Part shown: positions 1 to 28,864 of the stretch, in pieces
Layout of the letters: each line of letters starts with the position of its first letter
How positions within the stretch are numbered: position 1 is the stretch's first letter
Assembly: GCA_019057815.1 (NCBI GenBank)
Contig: JAHLWR010000032.1
Coordinates: 1 to 28,864, forward strand
DNA from: Candidatus Heimdallarchaeota archaeon
Lineage (GTDB): Archaea; Asgardarchaeota; Heimdallarchaeia; Heimdallarchaeales; Heimdallarchaeaceae
Reading direction: 5' to 3'
Length of the DNA: 28,864 nucleotides
The notes under the pieces: model-generated
What the model was told of the DNA's origin: nothing
Databases searched by the model: none
Seen by the model: the letters and a program-made list of their open reading frames with translations, nothing else
Translations under genes and position numbers: made by a program

Positions 1-118
1 TCTTTTACTTCAGCGTCTTTCTTATCGGCGTCTTTCTTTTTAGAAACCTTCTTAGGCTTGTCTTCTTTTACTTCAGCGTCTTTCTTATCAGCGTCTTTCT
101 TTTTAGAAACCTTCTTAG
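1..118 (-). repeat. 63-nt period coding tandem repeat (21 aa, KPKKVSKKKDADKKDAEVKED) in the uS3 tail
   Basis: Bases 1-55 match bases 64-118 with one substitution; the array is cut by the window edge. Confidence 0.93.
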
Positions 119-950
119 TGAAAAGCTTCTTCTTAGGCTTACCTTCTTCTACTGTTATAATCGCTTCCTTCTTCGAGCTAATCGCATCCACTTCATCTAA
201 TTCTTTAAATTCGTCATCAGGTATTATTTTTGTTTCACTAATTTCATCAGTTATTTCAGGGAATTCTTCTAATTCGTCCAGTGTTTCCTCAGTTATTTCA
301 ATAGTTTCTTCTTCTTGTTCTCCTTCTGGTAGTACAACCATTGAGGTAGAAGTTGGTTCAGCAATTATTTCAATATCATCAGGAAGGATTGCATCACCAC
401 GCATAATTTCGACTTGAACACCAAGCAACCCTCTTCTTATTAGTGCTTGAGCTTTTCCAACATCAACATATTTGGAAGCTGGTTCACCACATTTAGCTAC
501 AAAACCTGCTCTAAATGTTTCAACTCTTGCTCTCTGACTTGTAATTTTCCCGCTAATTTTAATTTCCACGCCTTTAGCGCCTGTAGATACGATTCGCCTA
601 ATAATTCCATGAGCAGAACGACGAAAATGTCTACCTCTTTCTAATGAAGATGCAAGTCTATAAGCCATAATTCTGGCATCTGTTTCAGGATTTTCAACTT
701 CAGTAACTTCAATTTGTGGGTTATCTAACTGATATTTACCTTGTAATACTTCAGTAATTTTACGGATATTTTTTCCTCTTCCACCTATAGCTAGACCCAC
801 TCTTCCAACACGCAAAACAACTCTGTCTCCAAGAGGGGTTCTTCTCACTTCTACCCCCCCATATTCTGCATTTCGGAGAGTATCAGCTAAATATTCATCA
901 ATTTCATTTTTCTGATATTTTTTTAAGAGATAATCTTTTGTGGCAGGCAT
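1..950 (-). CDS. rps3: 30S ribosomal protein uS3 with long acidic then Lys/Asp-rich repetitive C-terminal extension; 3' end runs off the window
   Basis: Not in the ORF track. Manual translation from ATG at 950 gives MPATKDYLLKKYQKNEIDEYL...RRTPLGDRVVLRVGRVGLAIGGRGKNIRKIT (KH domain)...LERGRHFRR...GAKGVEIKISGKITSQRAR...GLLGVQVEIM. It lies 3 nt after the rpl22 stop and the frame stays open to the window edge. Confidence 0.97.
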   Translation of the reverse strand, partial: MPATKDYLLKKYQKNEIDEYLADTLRNAEYGGVEVRRTPLGDRVVLRVGRVGLAIGGRGKNIRKITEVLQGKYQLDNPQIEVTEVENPETDARIMAYRLASSLERGRHFRRSAHGIIRRIVSTGAKGVEIKISGKITSQRARVETFRAGFVAKCGEPASKYVDVGKAQALIRRGLLGVQVEIMRGDAILPDDIEIIAEPTSTSMVVLPEGEQEEETIEITEETLDELEEFPEITDEISETKIIPDDEFKELDEVDAISSKKEAIITVEEGKPKKKLFTKKVSKKKDADKKDAEVKEDKPKKVSKKKDADKKDAEVK

Positions 951-1636: not shown

Positions 1637-4114
1637 TTAAAGGGCTAATAGAATATAATCATTCTCTAATCCAACTTTATCTGCTATATTTTCCATCGAT
1701 TTGGGAACATCAATTATCTCGTTTATTCCGTGCATTGAAGCCAAATCTTCAGAGAAAAGTTTTAACTTGGGAGGAAGATATGCTTTTGAAATTGGGGTGT
1801 TTAAAGGCAGTTTTTTGTCTTTTTTATACTTCCAAATAGCTGAATTGACATCGAGTAACAAAGTGGTTAATTCTGTTAGTTTCTTTTCTTTACTTATTTT
1901 CTCGGGTCTTGGAAATGATTCTAAGTGTACACTCTTTTCAAATATACCTCTATATATTATATCAGTTACAAAAGGGATTAATGGTGCGAATGAGCGAGCT
2001 AAAGCATTAAGAACGGTGTGCAATGTGTACCATGCTGCTTTTTGCTCCTTATCGGTGAATGAATTATTACGATTATAAGCTCTTCCTTTAACTAATTCAA
2101 TATAATGAGAAGCAAATATCTCCCAAGTAAACGATCTCAATATTCTAGCAGGTATATGAAAGTCAAAGATTTCATATCCTTTAATCGTTTCTTCTACAGT
2201 TTTGGCTAATTCTGCTAGAATCCATTTATCTGCAAGTTGCAAATTTACTTCTTTTTCATTATCTATTATGGGAAAGAAACTGATGAATTTGGCGATGTTG
2301 TAAATTTTGTTTATAAATTTTGATATTCCTTGTAATCTTTGTTCATGGAATCGTATATCTGAGCCATGGCTAGCCTCTGATGCGCCAAATAATCTTAAGG
2401 CGTCACCGCCATATTTTTCTATCATTAACTCTGGCTGAATAATGTTTCCTCGACTTTTCGACATTTTTTCGCCTTTTCTATCTACTACATGTCCTGATAT
2501 CCATACTTCATTAAAAGCAGGTTTTTTATGAAGTTGTAACCCTCTCAGCATTGTGTAGTGTAACCAAGTTCTCACGATATCCTTTCCTTGAGGACGTATA
2601 TCGCAGATATAATTTCGATTTAGCAATTTTTCAAATAGTTGCTCATTACTTCTATTGAGAGGGTATTTTTGAATATAAATTTCAGAGATAGATGAATCCA
2701 TCCAAGTATCAAAAGTGCGCGTATCACCCTCAAAACCTTCAGAACTACCACAATTCTCGCATTTGTCAAAAGGAGGATCGGTGTACCATGGTTGATAATA
2801 ATTACCTGGTTCAGGAAGACAAGCATGATTACATTTTAAGCAATACCAAATAGGTACCTCTGTTCCATAGTATCTTCTTCGACTAATTGGCCAATCGATT
2901 GAGACATTTTTTAACCAGTCTAACCACACTTGCTCCATAAATGGTGGATAAAATTGCATTTGACCAGCATATTCACGTAATTTCTCTATGTAATCAACTT
3001 GTTTAAGATAATACTCGGGCATAGCAAGATATTCTACTTCGTTTTGACAACGTGAACATGTTGGATAATTATGTGGTACATCTTCTTTATCTACAACAAA
3101 ACCGTTCTCTTCCAATTCCTTAATTATATCTTTTCTGGCTTGTTTAACCTTTATACCCGCATATTTTGGAAGAGCATCAGTGATTTTACCATCTGTGCCA
3201 ATTACAGGTCTTGGAGTTAGTTTTAGTTCTCTAAATATTTGCACATCAACAATATCACCATATGCACATATCATTAATGCGCCAGAACCAAAATCCATCT
3301 TTGCAAAATGGTGTGCTTGAATAGGGACTTCAACTTCAAAAATAGGCGTTACAGCTGTTAAACCTTCTAAATGCTTGTATCTATCATCATGTGAATTATA
3401 AATTACTGTACCAGTAGCTGGAATAAGCTCAGGTCTAGATGTAGCTATTATTAGATCTTCACCAGTTTCCTTTACTTTGAACTTAATGCTATAGAGTGTG
3501 TGAGTTCCAGTTTTATAATCAATTTCATTATCAGCAATCGTTGTCTTGCAACGAGTGCAATAATTATTTGGGCGATCATCCTCATAAACTAAACCTTCTC
3601 TGAACAGCTTAATAAATGTGGATTGAGTAAGAGCTCTATATTGTGGATGATCTGTTTTGTAAATTTCTTCCCATTCAAAAGAATTGTTACTAAAACCAAG
3701 AATCTTGCAAACGTGTAAAATCTTGCCACCAACACGATCAAGTATAAATTTACATTTTTGAAGAAATTCTTCTCGAGGAATATCGTGCATGGAAATTTTA
3801 AATTCCTTCTCAGTCTGCACTTCAATAGGAAGTCCATTTCTATCGAGACACATCGGAAAAAGCACTTCAAAGCCACTCATTCGCTTATAGCGTGCTATCA
3901 TATCAATTCCACTATAATGAATTGCGCCCCCCATATGCCAAGGAGCATTAGCATAAGGAGGAGGAGTATCTATACTATAGATTGTTTTACCAGAGTTCTC
4001 ATTGAAAGAGTATAATTTTTCTTCTTGCCATTTGTTGAATAATTGAATATCCTTAATCTTTGGATCATATGTTCTTTCAGTAAGTTTTGGGACGAAATTA
4101 TTCACAGTTGACAC
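1637..4114 (-). CDS. valS: Valine--tRNA ligase (archaeal type)
   Basis: Motifs DTPPPY..WHMGG (HIGH variant), DRNGLPIE, IATSRPE, GSGALMIC (editing domain), DWPISRRRYYG, FDTWMDSS, PQGKDIVRTW and KMSKSRGN. Confidence 0.97.
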   Translation of the reverse strand: MSTVNNFVPKLTERTYDPKIKDIQLFNKWQEEKLYSFNENSGKTIYSIDTPPPYANAPWHMGGAIHYSGIDMIARYKRMSGFEVLFPMCLDRNGLPIEVQTEKEFKISMHDIPREEFLQKCKFILDRVGGKILHVCKILGFSNNSFEWEEIYKTDHPQYRALTQSTFIKLFREGLVYEDDRPNNYCTRCKTTIADNEIDYKTGTHTLYSIKFKVKETGEDLIIATSRPELIPATGTVIYNSHDDRYKHLEGLTAVTPIFEVEVPIQAHHFAKMDFGSGALMICAYGDIVDVQIFRELKLTPRPVIGTDGKITDALPKYAGIKVKQARKDIIKELEENGFVVDKEDVPHNYPTCSRCQNEVEYLAMPEYYLKQVDYIEKLREYAGQMQFYPPFMEQVWLDWLKNVSIDWPISRRRYYGTEVPIWYCLKCNHACLPEPGNYYQPWYTDPPFDKCENCGSSEGFEGDTRTFDTWMDSSISEIYIQKYPLNRSNEQLFEKLLNRNYICDIRPQGKDIVRTWLHYTMLRGLQLHKKPAFNEVWISGHVVDRKGEKMSKSRGNIIQPELMIEKYGGDALRLFGASEASHGSDIRFHEQRLQGISKFINKIYNIAKFISFFPIIDNEKEVNLQLADKWILAELAKTVEETIKGYEIFDFHIPARILRSFTWEIFASHYIELVKGRAYNRNNSFTDKEQKAAWYTLHTVLNALARSFAPLIPFVTDIIYRGIFEKSVHLESFPRPEKISKEKKLTELTTLLLDVNSAIWKYKKDKKLPLNTPISKAYLPPKLKLFSEDLASMHGINEIIDVPKSMENIADKVGLENDYILLAL

Positions 4115-4279
4115 CTTTTTGTATTTGTGATTTGTTTTACTTTAAAAATTGAGTGATTATACACCCAATCAGCATATTCTATAATTAAGCGAAACAGCTT
4201 ACCATTTTAAAAACGTGGTTAACTTATTCTAGCTTGGAGGAAGAAAAACTCTGTTTTCCAAGTAGTCTCTATTCTATAT

Positions 4280-5731
4280 CTAATAAAGGGCATTTTTGTC
4301 TCTAGGTCCTCTCAAATAGGAAATTGCTGCAGCTAAAAGAATCATAACCACAAATACCCAAAACACTACTTTCAAACTAGGAATATAATTTACTACATCC
4401 ATTAATTCTCCTCCATTGTTTTTTTGGAAAAGAATGAGACTTACGGATAATACAGCTGTAGATAGGGCTGTTCCCAAAGTGAAACCTACTTGAGCTGAAA
4501 TATTCAACAACCCACTAGCTACACCCAACTTTTCTTTGGGAGCTGATGTCATTACAGAGTTTGAATTGGGTGAAATGAAAGCACCTAAAGATGCTCCAAT
4601 AATTACGGAAATTAAGTAAAATATCCACATAGGTAACTCGGGTTTTAACACAATACTAAAGAATCCTAAGGCAATAGCGATGCCTAACAATCCAACAGTA
4701 GCAATAATACGTGCATCGATTTTATTTGAGAGTTTACCAGAAATTGGTCCAACAACTGCCATTGCTAGTGGAGCACCTAAGATGACTAAACCGGTTTCAG
4801 TAGCTGTTAAATTCATTCCATCCTTAAATTGTAGATAAAATGGAAGCTGGAACAAAAGAACGTTTAATCCAACATACGCTAAAACAGATACAAGTATTCC
4901 ATAAGCATATTTCCTATTTTTGAACATTTTAAAATCAATAGCAGGATTTTCCACTCTTTTCTCCCACCATACAAATACAATAAACGCAGGAAGTGCAACA
5001 CTTAAAGCTATAAAGCCCCACATTATGTTGTTACGCAGTTTTGTTTCAACAAAGAAGGTTAAACTGCCAATACTTGAAAACATAAACAATACAAATGAAA
5101 TAGAGCCCAAAACGTCACCTTTCTTATCATATGATGATGGTGGTGTAGATGGGATAGCCAATTGAACCCAAATAAGCCCTAAGATACCTAAGGGTACATT
5201 GATGAGAAAAATACTAGGCCAGCCCCATTTATCAGTTAACAAACCACCTATAATTGGGCCTAGAGTTATTCCTAGAGCAACAATTAATGTATTAAGACCT
5301 ATTGCTGTACCTCGATTTTCTGTTGTTGTAAATTTAGTTATAAGTGCCGTACAATTAGCTAGAGTGGCAGCTGCTCCTAAGGCTTGGAGTGTTCTTGATA
5401 GAATAAGGAAAAGCAAAGTATCTGACAAAGAACACAATAATGAACCAATAGAGAATATAAATAAACCAATTTGGAAAACACGTTTATTACCGAACCTGTC
5501 ACCAAAATCCCCGAAAATAGTGGTAAAAGCTATCAATGTAAGCAAGTAAGTTAAAATAACCCATTGAACAAGATGCATCTCAACTCCCAACTTTTCCTTA
5601 ATTACAGGTAAACTGATGGTTGTAATAGTTGCATCAACTGATGACATAAATGTTCCAATGCCAGTAGCACTAATTAAAGTAACTATCCTGAGGGTTGTCT
5701 TGGGTTCTTTTTCAAGGCTTATTGGAATCAC
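4280..5731 (-). CDS. MFS transporter, DHA2 (EmrB/QacA-like, about 14 TMS) efflux family
   Basis: Motifs FMSSVDATITTISLP, GDFGDRFGNKR (motif A), RTLQALG, LGPIIGGLL and WPSIFLINVPLG; many hydrophobic helices. Confidence 0.93.
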   Translation of the reverse strand: MIPISLEKEPKTTLRIVTLISATGIGTFMSSVDATITTISLPVIKEKLGVEMHLVQWVILTYLLTLIAFTTIFGDFGDRFGNKRVFQIGLFIFSIGSLLCSLSDTLLFLILSRTLQALGAAATLANCTALITKFTTTENRGTAIGLNTLIVALGITLGPIIGGLLTDKWGWPSIFLINVPLGILGLIWVQLAIPSTPPSSYDKKGDVLGSISFVLFMFSSIGSLTFFVETKLRNNIMWGFIALSVALPAFIVFVWWEKRVENPAIDFKMFKNRKYAYGILVSVLAYVGLNVLLFQLPFYLQFKDGMNLTATETGLVILGAPLAMAVVGPISGKLSNKIDARIIATVGLLGIAIALGFFSIVLKPELPMWIFYLISVIIGASLGAFISPNSNSVMTSAPKEKLGVASGLLNISAQVGFTLGTALSTAVLSVSLILFQKNNGGELMDVVNYIPSLKVVFWVFVVMILLAAAISYLRGPRDKNALY

Positions 5732-27402: not shown

Positions 27403-28050
27403 ATGTCTTCAACTGAGTTTGGTAAAGTAAATGCGACACGCATGGAACTTTTGAATACGCGTGCTAAGATCCGTTTAGCTCAAAAAGGACATGATTTATT
27501 AAAAGAAAAAATGGATGCTCTAGTTATAGAATTATATGCTATAAAAGATGAGGTTCATCAAGCACAGAAAAAAATTGAAAAAGAATTAGCAATAGCATAC
27601 CAATCACTAGCGAAGGGAGAAATGATTATTGGTCCAGATAAAATACGCGATTTAGCTCAATACGCACCCGCAGTACTTGAAATCAGGACAGAGACTATAA
27701 GTATAATGGGTGTAAAATCACCTAGATTTATTGTCAAAGAAGTAGAAAAAGAAGGAGAGGGAATTTTTTATGGATTAACAAGCTCAAGTGCTCAACTTGA
27801 TCGTGCTATCATGTATTTCCGTAAAACATTAAAAACTCTCATGGTTATTGCAGAAAAAATGACACTTCTTGAAAAACTTGCTAGTGAAATCAATAAAACT
27901 AAAAGAAGAGTAAATGCTCTTAACTATATTCTACTACCAAGGCTTAGACAAACAGCTACTTTCATAGCTAGTACATTGGAAGAACAAGAAAGAGAAACAT
28001 TTTCTAGATTGAAGCGAGTAAAAGCAATTTTAGAGTCTAAGAAAGCGTGA
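27403..28050 (+). CDS. atpD: A/V-type ATP synthase subunit D
   Basis: Motifs TRMELL, AQKGHDLLKEKMDAL, SIMGVKSP, EINKTKRRVNAL and LEEQERETFSRLKRVK. Confidence 0.96.
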   Translation: MSSTEFGKVNATRMELLNTRAKIRLAQKGHDLLKEKMDALVIELYAIKDEVHQAQKKIEKELAIAYQSLAKGEMIIGPDKIRDLAQYAPAVLEIRTETISIMGVKSPRFIVKEVEKEGEGIFYGLTSSSAQLDRAIMYFRKTLKTLMVIAEKMTLLEKLASEINKTKRRVNALNYILLPRLRQTATFIASTLEEQERETFSRLKRVKAILESKKA

Positions 28051-28273
28051 AATTTCTGCTCTATTTTAGCGTCAGAGATGTAGAAAACAAATAGTATTCA
28101 CTCTTGAAAAATTAGTTTTGAACACATTATATTTTCAAGATAATATCATTGTTTATCAATTGACAACTTTAATAGGATTTAAAAATATACGTTACAAGTA
28201 TACTTATAGTAGTATTACATTAATAGAGAAAAATATAAAAGCATCGTAAATAAAAAAAGTAAGAGGAAAAAAA

Positions 28274-28864
28274 ATGCCGTTTGATGATTGGTTTAATAAT
28301 TTACCACCTGTTGGTATAGGTGATAGTGGATTAAAATTACTTATGTATCTTCTTATAATTTATACATTATTAAGTGCGTTAATTGTGTTTTTACTAACCA
28401 GAAAGTTCAGACAAATATCAGTTGGACCATCTTTGTTAGGTATAGACACAGGTGACGATGAACCCATATCTACTGATATTCCTCCTTCGGAGAGAATAGC
28501 AATTTTAAACATTGAAAAGGCTAAAAATGTTGCTGCACAAAAAACACTTTCTGATGTTCATAGGAAGAAAGAAGTTAGCGACACGATCTTTAATAGGCTT
28601 TCTGTTAGATATGCTACAGAAGTTCAAAAAATAGAAGAAGAGATAGAAAAAACAACTCGTGAAGTCGAAGTTTCACAATTGGAACAAGAACTAAAGAAAA
28701 TGCAAGGAGATTACTTAACCAAAATTAAAGGAGATGAAGCTAAAAGCACATCAGCGCCAGCACCACCAGGAACAGCGCCAACAGCGCCAACAGCGCCAGC
28801 ACCACCAGGAACAGCGCCAGCACCACCAGGAACAGCGCCAGCACCACCAGGAACAGCGCCAGCA
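28274..28864 (+). CDS. Single-TM membrane-anchored coiled-coil protein with Pro-rich repeats; 3' end runs off the window
   Basis: Not in the ORF track. 197 open codons from ATG 28274 (GAGG upstream): MPFDDWF..., TM LLMYLLIIYTLLSALIVFLL followed by TRKFR, helical/coiled-coil region aa ~72-152, then APAPPGT repeats. Confidence 0.88.
   Translation, partial: MPFDDWFNNLPPVGIGDSGLKLLMYLLIIYTLLSALIVFLLTRKFRQISVGPSLLGIDTGDDEPISTDIPPSERIAILNIEKAKNVAAQKTLSDVHRKKEVSDTIFNRLSVRYATEVQKIEEEIEKTTREVEVSQLEQELKKMQGDYLTKIKGDEAKSTSAPAPPGTAPTAPTAPAPPGTAPAPPGTAPAPPGTAPA
28752..28864 (+). repeat. 21-nt coding tandem repeat CAGCGCCAGCACCACCAGGAA (APAPPGT) interrupted by two 9-nt CAGCGCCAA (APT) units
   Basis: Four complete identical 21-mers plus a partial fifth at the window edge. 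Confidence 0.95.

Follow-up and report, generated by a model that had tools for sequence, protein, structure and literature searches.

Analysis of a 28,864-nucleotide stretch of DNA from a Candidatus Heimdallarchaeota archaeon (assembly GCA_019057815.1, contig JAHLWR010000032.1, positions 1 to 28,864, the whole of which is referred to here as the window) allowed us to identify, at its 3' end, the greater part of a gene whose product carries a small, strongly conserved C-terminal helix. This tail is a portable module that is found across the Asgard archaea. We propose, with a probability of roughly 0.55, that the protein is a membrane tether which presents the helix, on a flexible arm, as a docking element to a conserved cytoplasmic partner. 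This probability applies to the mechanism of a tether with a docking helix and is separate from the identity of the partner, which is weighed further below.

The window corresponds to the entire contig C41 of a 48-contig assembly (3.74 Mb, 33% G+C). The open reading frame (ORF) in question starts with an ATG at position 28274 of the forward strand, runs through 197 codons to position 28864 and exits the contig with its 3' end open. The 3' end of C41 falls within a 21-nt tandem repeat of the gene, and the start of contig C12 was found to be the sole other contig end with this repeat on the same strand. The two ends overlap by 49 nt exactly, neither has another partner, and the joined gene is in frame, has one stop codon and encodes at least 264 amino acids. 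The join was confirmed by the orthologue from a genome of the same genus (G001), which is intact, encodes 270 amino acids and has the same neighbours, atpD and rpiA. The ORF at 28274-28864 is the 5' three-quarters of one real gene of at least 264 codons that was cut by an assembly break. The earlier note, which had called this ORF and proposed recovery of the full gene, was right as to its existence, and the 3' part is now located on C12. That note had found the ORF missing from the track, for which the division of the gene between two contig ends would account.

The recovered C-terminus consists of an amphipathic helix of about 30 residues, FAKSTSIAALRxEMLKELxRLKKFM, which follows Pro-rich units and the acidic patch EEEGDLF. 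Across 39 sequences the residues F242-AKSTSIAAL-R252, M255, L256, E258, L259, L262 and K263 are invariant, so that conservation extends to charged and small positions besides the hydrophobic ones. The tail is identical to that of the same-genus orthologue at 32 of 32 positions, as against 89% identity for the N-terminal part, which falls to about 30% identity across the order. A variable linker followed by a frozen short peptide in which charged and small residues are kept is the pattern of a docking peptide, and we infer that docking is the role of the end helix. The gene was present in 23 of the 24 genomes sampled from the same family and, at lower scores, in nine of the 16 sampled from the other three families of the order. 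This genome holds a single copy of the tail. A further 89 database clusters matched, bearing only the names Heimdallarchaeota or Heimdallarchaeaceae and including both closed Ca. Heimdallarchaeum genomes; their labels are “hypothetical” save for two automatic assignments as DNA polymerase III gamma/tau, and none has a Pfam domain. Pfam analysis of the protein, of 39 relatives and of ten other tail carriers gave no family above cut-off, and hmmscan against Pfam-A at E ≤ 10 gave none in the C-terminal 83 residues.

Profiles built on the tail matched far beyond the order, in every case behind a Pro-rich stretch and nearly always at the extreme C-terminus. With a pan-Asgard profile, against which the tail of the present protein scores an E-value of 4.4e-19, the module was detected in 141 of 189 Asgard genomes of at least 90% completeness, mostly in single copy, and in 133 of 149 when one family with few and weak matches is left aside. 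The consensus is a C-terminal LRxEMLxELxRLKKxM behind a Pro-rich disordered arm. A HMMER search of 1.84 billion representative proteins returned 116 matches at E ≤ 0.001, nearly all of them at the extreme C-terminus and falling into three length classes. The domains that precede the tail differ: they include a single transmembrane (TM) helix with a hairpin, as here, a polytopic membrane domain with a hairpin, a soluble helical head, and fusions that join the tail to a Ras/Roc-type GTPase and a Zn-ribbon; in one case a TM protein carrying the tail ends in a TIR domain. The soluble carriers, of around 200-260 amino acids with a helical head of about 55 residues, include WEU40329.1 of Ca. Odinarchaeum yellowstonii LCB_4. 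When the TM-type and soluble-type proteins were compared profile to profile (hhalign), only the 24-residue tail aligned (probability 98.7%, E 3.8e-16), and this comparison detected no kinship between the hairpin of the TM type and the head of the soluble type. In some chains (P0097, P0160, P0171 and P0176) the helix is repeated two or three times in tandem, with disordered, often Pro-rich spacers in between, as one would sooner expect of a ligand motif than of a domain for oligomerisation.

Several of these chains with repeated helices also have a Zn-ribbon, CPxCG...CCxC, and behind it a C-terminal domain that has no Pfam name. In f5, which is a sister family in the same class (loci L046 and L047, e.g. 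L046:1289-2959 and 3496-5187), the tail is carried by proteins of about 560 amino acids with a polytopic domain of about 380 residues, and these are often encoded by two tandem paralogous genes adjoining rpiA. Family f12 at first seemed to lack the tail (0 of 19 genomes), but this was an artefact of a Heimdall-biased profile, since the pan-Asgard profile found the tail in all five f12 genomes tested. The same five genomes also encode both ESCRT-III and actin, so that presence and absence across genomes cannot choose between these two as partners.

The other parts of the protein are laid out in Table 1. In the N-terminal stub, P11, P12 and K20 are nearly invariant (22-39 family members aligned). 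The hydropathy of the TM segment reaches a Kyte-Doolittle maximum of 2.66 in 19-residue windows across residues ~18-45. On its N-terminal side the flank holds no K/R and three D/E, and the 15 residues on its C-terminal side hold three K/R and no D/E; basic residues are kept at the TRKFR position in the family alignment. By the positive-inside rule, this charge bias predicts an N-out/C-in topology that leaves most of the protein in the cytoplasm. An AlphaFold2 (AF2) model was computed from a 39-sequence alignment, the folded sequence being that of the G001 orthologue, which is 89% identical. It comprised a helix at residues 17-49 that corresponds to the TM segment (predicted local distance difference test, pLDDT, ~90), hairpin helices at 70-96 and 102-153 (pLDDT 85-91), a disordered region from 155 to 239 (pLDDT <50) and a C-terminal helix at 240-269 (pLDDT about 75). 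L77, I79, E80, L91, S101, L108 and Y112 are conserved in the hairpin, which probably oligomerises by pairing two or more chains. A fold search (VIA-align, 48,161 chains) returned only generic helical hairpins without a clear leader (Z 8-9.6). HIV gp41 came first, ESCRT-III, CdvA, OST1 and the ESCRT-I core scored level with unrelated proteins, and no fold can be assigned on this basis. A search of PDB sequences with the family profile likewise gave no significant match, the best being OST1 (8WHN, E 0.03) and CdvA (E 0.06).

The Pro-rich arm could be delimited in 25 family members, in which it spans 46-157 residues and contains 28-36% Pro. The minimal joined gene has four exact 21-nt units, encoding four APAPPGT repeats, as against two in the G001 orthologue; the number here is a minimum, the assembly breaking inside the array. 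A difference of this kind within one genus means that the array alters its copy number, and the word “expanding”, which the earlier note had used of it, is a fair description. That note had also cautioned that the Pro runs are only PP; this is so in this genome and genus, and does not extend to the family, in which a PPPPP run and an IPAPxxPxPKPP motif are kept in 12 of the 25 delimited linkers. Opposite the arm, an antisense ORF occupies positions 28711-28863 of the reverse strand in the window, and one was seen in every relative looked at (127-211 amino acids, Gly/Ala-rich; e.g. L006:965-1531 (+) and L007:1935-2465 (-)); a gene caller could choose the wrong strand here.

Taken together, these features are consistent with the following mechanism. 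The TM helix would anchor the protein in an N-out/C-in orientation with its other parts in the cytoplasm, and the hairpin would pair two or more chains. The disordered, ~30%-Pro arm of 46-157 residues, which appears to evolve freely, here by recent expansion of the 21-nt unit, would give reach, and the near-invariant end helix would be the docking peptide by which a conserved partner is kept against the cytoplasmic side of the cell membrane. The earlier note had described an N-terminal TM helix, a TRKFR stop-transfer segment that leaves the remainder in the cytoplasm, a helical hairpin plus coiled coil and a Pro-rich arm, and this layout is borne out by the hydropathy, the charge bias (a prediction from sequence as far as the orientation goes) and the AF2 helices. 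The same note had left the nature of the C-terminus to a fuller gene and a search of homologues across the Asgards; the C-terminus has turned out to be a docking-type helix of Asgard-wide occurrence, with no enzymatic or S-layer domain by Pfam, alignment or AF2. None of the outcomes that the note had listed as refuting its idea has thus turned up.

Our leading candidate for the partner, put forward tentatively, at well below even odds, is an actin-family protein, which the helix may bind through its hydrophobic groove in the way that arcadin-2 binds crenactin; ESCRT/Vps4 and self-association come next, at lower and nearly equal odds, and something else takes the remainder. The evidence that points to actin comes from family f20 (135 genomes, 13 genera), in which the soluble carrier of the tail is single-copy in 117 genomes. 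The carrier and a divergent actin paralogue lie on one contig in 109 of the 114 (mutually related) genomes in which both genes are listed, with a median gap of 923 bp and a maximum of 6.2 kb, and the five exceptions have the two genes on separate short contigs. In both loci examined (L055 and L058) the carrier and actin genes are co-directional. The linkage between carrier and actin in f20 is real and conserved. In part of the family (L055:380-3165, L058:1812-4503) a co-directional trio is formed by the soluble carrier, a PIG-L-type deacetylase and the divergent actin; in 34 f20 genomes the gap between carrier and actin is below 500 bp, which leaves no room for the PIG-L gene between the two. 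A broader and more speculative proposal, which we consider doubtful as it stands, is that the end helix is an Asgard-wide ligand of the actin groove, a counterpart of the WH2 and arcadin-2 tails, that is carried in the Heimdall group on integral membrane proteins. If true, the protein would connect the membrane directly to actin or act as an assembly factor, and it would do so in the closest archaeal relatives of eukaryotes; regulators of this class have yet to be reported from the Asgard archaea.

Several points weigh against this reading. The adjacency to actin occurs in one family only, and its carriers share only the tail with the present protein, so that it may be their head that relates to actin. 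The f20 genomes are kin and not independent, and the count of 109 of 114 overstates the evidence. This genome has three actin-family genes (C38:239293-240429, C35:48190-49395 and C27:38491-39957), all on contigs other than that of the gene, and no clear orthologue of the f20 actin among them, the best match being the canonical actin at 41-43% identity. The conserved neighbour, rpiA, is a housekeeping gene, and there is no actin-family gene nearby. As to the tether itself, its N-out/C-in orientation is a prediction from the positive-inside rule. Lastly, the tail displays a heptad-like hydrophobic stripe at a/d positions (L, I, L, M, L, F) with a hydrophobic moment of 0.4-0.5, and it may self-associate.

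On this last account the end helix would be an oligomerising coiled coil like the tetramerisation helix of Ena/VASP, and the Pro motifs of the arm would be the working ligands, for instance for profilin. The position of the helix at the extreme C-terminus behind a Pro-rich region is that found in VASP, the heptad-like stripe and its moment also speak for this account, the PPPPP run and IPAPxxPxPKPP motif are kept in 12 of the 25 arms, and the profilin of Heimdall LC3 binds a VASP poly-Pro peptide, weakly, with a dissociation constant (Kd) of 0.3-3.3 mM (PMC8410842). The surface residues K244, S245, T246, S247, R252, E258 and K263 are nevertheless invariant, which is unusual for a plain coiled coil, two to three tandem helices per chain on disordered spacers suit a repeated ligand motif better, and the hairpin is already available for oligomerising. 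No VASP tetramerisation domain was matched in Pfam, and the arm in this genome has only PP runs. We consider self-association as the main function of the tail to be quite unlikely. The Pfam profilin model had no match in this genome, and since it had none in 14 control genomes either, this result is no evidence of absence.

The possibility that the end helix is a MIM1-type (MIT-interacting) motif was also considered. In this case it would bind the MIT domain of Vps4 or of another MIT protein and recruit or regulate ESCRT-III/Vps4, in a manner comparable to CdvA in TACK archaea. Two ESCRT-III genes, the only ORFs of the genome matched by PF03357, lie together with Vps4 on contig C38, and the tails of both proteins, ..ELEAELEGLRKK.. 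and ..DLEAEIQKLRKKEE, share the spacing and basic end of EMLKELDRLKK. More specifically, the pattern [DE]-hydrophobic-x-x-E-hydrophobic-x-x-L-[KR]-K near the C-terminus matches only these two proteins among 2,961 ORFs, although it was written from all three sequences after the fact, is hence circular and was rejected as evidence. When the tail is set against the MIM1 consensus (D/E)xxLxxRLxxL(K/R), M255, L259, L262 and K263 fit, while the Arg position is occupied by Glu, as it also is in the two ESCRT-III tails of this genome, and the likeness is not significant at the profile level: a profile of the family's tails alone ranks the first ESCRT-III 251st of the 2,961 ORFs, and the second is not among the best 400. 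Leu-rich, MIM1-like C-terminal helices have been described for the Asgard Vps2/24/46 proteins (PMC7240154).

The hairpin weakly matches the CdvA filament (E 0.06; Z 8.8, root-mean-square deviation 1.5 over 71 residues), and a distant family member gave an E-value of 5.7e-4 against Pfam CdvA and one member an E-value of 0.024 against Vps23_core. Against this, generic hairpins make up the fold matches, none of them standing out, and homology of the hairpin to CdvA was rejected since PF18822 matches two other ORFs of the genome at E ≤ 1 and not this gene. The protein has no Snf7 domain and its gene is away from the ESCRT locus on C38. A weak argument, which also counts against this explanation, is that the MIT domain is 39-44% identical within the order while the tail is invariant. 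Prediction of a complex between the tail and the Vps4 MIT domain gave a score of 0.04, which counts neither for nor against. Besides Vps4, the genome has two weaker MIT-like ORFs, on C21 and C33. Overall, we regard an ESCRT adaptor as unlikely. Elsewhere in the genome, at C38:82877-83182 (-) (locus L102), a 275-amino-acid ORF weakly matches PF18822 (27 bits, cut-off 30) and may be a steadiness-box/CdvA-type hairpin.

The genes around this one are of ordinary kinds. Pfam identified AtpD upstream, followed by an exosome Csl4/Rrp4-type gene and DUF2067, and downstream, on C12, RpiA, a PIN domain with a secretion-type ATPase, NAC and AtpF. Two other neighbouring ORFs, read by eye, are presumably a tRNA-splicing endonuclease and a Trm5-like enzyme; Pfam did not confirm them. 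The rpiA neighbour persists across several Asgard families and atpD in two genera, and the adjacency of rpiA probably reflects retained gene order rather than function. Such a locus, together with the hairpin, could suggest a membrane protein associated with translation or the translocon, its hairpin being akin to the ribosome-binding cytoplasmic bundle of OST1/ribophorin I. The best sequence match in the PDB is indeed the OST1 cytoplasmic domain of MK-D1 (8WHN; E 0.03, non-significant, in two stretches; Z 8.7), a domain that pulls down ribosomes (PMC11417166), and NAC and the exosome Csl4/Rrp4-type protein are among the neighbours. An E-value of 0.03 at 16% identity for a generic hairpin argues against such a role, as do the arm and invariant tail, which it leaves unexplained, and the neighbours, which are ordinary housekeeping genes and, rpiA aside, not conserved partners. 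We hold this explanation to be very improbable.

Several side observations concern the ATP synthase genes of this region. The gene for A-type ATP synthase subunit D (27403-28050 +) stands alone, facing the exosome Csl4-type gene and outside any atp operon. That for subunit F (C12, 5752-6081 (-), L004) lies about 6 kb on past the contig join. In another family (locus L060), an AtpF-like ORF, recognised by eye only, adjoins rpiA and a TM-type gene.

In view of these comparisons, the proposal of the earlier note, a membrane-tethered scaffold that recruits profilin-actin or ESCRT partners, stands in part. The tether layout is upheld, and an indirect link to actin comes from f20. The domains that would tie the protein to either system were not matched in Pfam (WH2, VASP or Snf7), nor did the C-terminus give a Pfam match for the WH2-like or VASP-tetramer motif that had been suggested. 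Its resemblance to the MIM1 tails of the genome's own ESCRT-III is not significant at the profile level, and a link to either system through the locus fails, the neighbours being atpD and rpiA and not actin, profilin or ESCRT genes.

Table 1 Features of the proposed tether gene, its surroundings and related tail carriers (positions are those of the window unless a contig is named; residues are those of the protein)
Feature	Position or identifiers	Strand	Description
Intergenic spacer between atpD and the gene	28051..28273	+	223 nt, AT-rich, read from sequence
N-terminal stub, residues 1-21	28274..28336	+	Acidic, conserved W..NLPP motif; predicted outside the cell
Single TM helix, residues 22-41	28337..28396	+	Hydropathy and AF2
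TRKFR, residues 42-46	28397..28411	+	Predicted basic cytoplasmic flank, putative stop-transfer signal
Antiparallel helical hairpin/coiled coil, residues ~71-154	28484..28735	+	AF2; predicted cytoplasmic
Pro-rich arm, start	28736..28864	+	Disordered; contains the 21-nt (APAPPGT) array; continues on C12
APAPPGT tandem array	28752-28864	+	TRF: period 21 nt, 5.5 copies, 87% matches
3' remainder of the gene	C12 (locus L004), bases 2-253		Last repeats, two QGIPAPAA units, acidic patch EEEGDLF, C-terminal helix, stop
Metagenomic representatives with tandem or fused tail	P0097, P0160, P0171, P0176, P0103, P0194, P0207, P0198, P0183

The spacer upstream of the gene probably holds its own promoter and ribosome-binding site, judging from its letters, which include AGAGG at 28262-28266, 7 nt 5' of the ATG. 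The promoter scan was of the bacterial sigma-70 type and is uninformative for an archaeal spacer. Many contigs of this assembly stop within short protein-coding tandem repeats, and their ends pair by exact overlaps of 41-56 nt. C13 is joined to C41 by 55 nt and C41 to C12 by 49 nt (the ends of the window lie at 1-60 and 28805-28864), and the pairs C2/C27, C10/C21, C16/C21, C8/C35, C38/C42 and C22/C39 were judged by eye. Since these contig ends sit in coding tandem repeats, the breaks point to genes with repeats, which annotation will probably truncate or overlook.

The family is nearly universal in the phylum and usually single-copy, its peptide of 20-30 residues is strongly constrained, and its members are labelled only “hypothetical protein”. 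No published description of it was found in the searchable literature. The actin regulators characterised in Asgard archaea so far are only profilins and gelsolins (bioRxiv 10.1101/2025.11.30.690169), and the way in which the actin and ESCRT machineries of these organisms are attached to membranes matters for models of eukaryote origin. The form found in the Heimdall group adds a true membrane anchor to the tail, and a sister family has it on a polytopic membrane domain. The protein may represent a membrane-cytoskeleton or membrane-ESCRT adaptor of Asgard archaea that is unrelated in sequence to the eukaryotic ones.

Among known systems, one of the closest in description is arcadin-2 of Pyrobaculum (PDB 5LY3). 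It carries a small, conserved helix at its C-terminus, behind a linker that is not conserved; the helix binds to crenactin in its hydrophobic groove with a Kd of 31 nM, and the gene adjoins that of crenactin (PMC5173319). A conserved C-terminal helix on a variable disordered linker is also seen here (arm of 46-157 residues, pLDDT <50), and in arcadin-2, as likewise in ParR with ParM, the helix alone carries the activity. The position of the arcadin-2 gene beside its actin is not reproduced at the present locus and is matched only by the soluble carriers of the tail in f20. Arcadin-2 also differs in having no membrane anchor and no Pro-rich arm and in binding through a Trp, a residue that the tail lacks, and the two are likened by description and not by sequence.

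A comparable layout, with a membrane-binding or oligomerising head, a Pro-rich region and, at the C-terminus or close to it, a short amphipathic helix with LKK at its end, is seen in WASP/WAVE, WIP, Ena/VASP and MIM/MTSS1. The last of these combines a membrane-binding I-BAR domain, a Pro/Ser-rich region and a C-terminal WH2. The tandem copies in some tail carriers recall Spire and Cobl, and some carriers are fused to small GTPases. WH2 consists of an amphipathic helix (LLxxI), an extended spacer of ~5 residues and LKK[TV]. The tail was rejected as a WH2, since MLKEL-DR-LKKF has two residues between the Leu and LKK and forms one continuous helix in AF2; WH2 (PF02205) was not among the Pfam matches of the C-terminal 83 residues, the 39 members or ten diverse carriers, a search in which HMMER filters can drop weak matches to short models. 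Membership of Ena/VASP was likewise rejected, there being no EVH1 or VASP tetramerisation family among the Pfam matches of the protein, the 39 relatives and the ten carriers, and only the Pro-rich region and C-terminal helix in common. In contrast to the WH2-type regulators, the present protein has no EVH1, FH2 or I-BAR match, and its anchor is a true TM helix.

The MIM1 tails of Vps2/24/46-class proteins (PMC7240154) resemble the tail in being extreme C-terminal amphipathic helices after a flexible linker, with hydrophobic residues four and three apart and a basic end. They differ in that here there is no ESCRT-III core, Arg is replaced by Glu, the conserved helix is longer (FAKSTSIAAL precedes) and the profile similarity is not significant; membership of ESCRT-III was rejected, no Snf7 core being matched by Pfam in the protein or its relatives. 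CdvA, the membrane recruiter of ESCRT-III in TACK archaea, and the steadiness-box hairpins (PF18822, PF09454) resemble the present protein in being membrane-bound and in combining a hairpin or coiled coil with a flexible linker and with a conserved docking peptide at the C-terminus. The present protein is anchored by a TM helix and showed no PRC barrel, and PF18822 has no match to the gene or its 39 relatives; a distant member (L043) reached 20.3 bits, below the cut-off of 30, and unrelated hairpins match the structure as well as 9s9g does (Z 8.8). In CdvA the tail binds by adding a strand to the winged helix of CdvB; the tail described here is a helix, and Asgard ESCRT-III are not known to have that winged helix.

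Lastly, ZipA, which tethers the cytoskeletal polymer FtsZ to the membrane in gamma-proteobacteria, has an N-out TM helix, which is followed by a charged stretch, a long flexible linker rich in Pro and Gln, and a C-terminal module for partner binding. The layout is alike by analogy only, with no sequence relation. In ZipA the C-terminal domain is globular and binds to the tail of FtsZ; here it is the tether itself that would carry the peptide. The protein belongs to no known family, and the tethers to which it may be likened in the way it works are those that operate through a docking peptide, namely arcadin-2, CdvA and, in reverse, ZipA.

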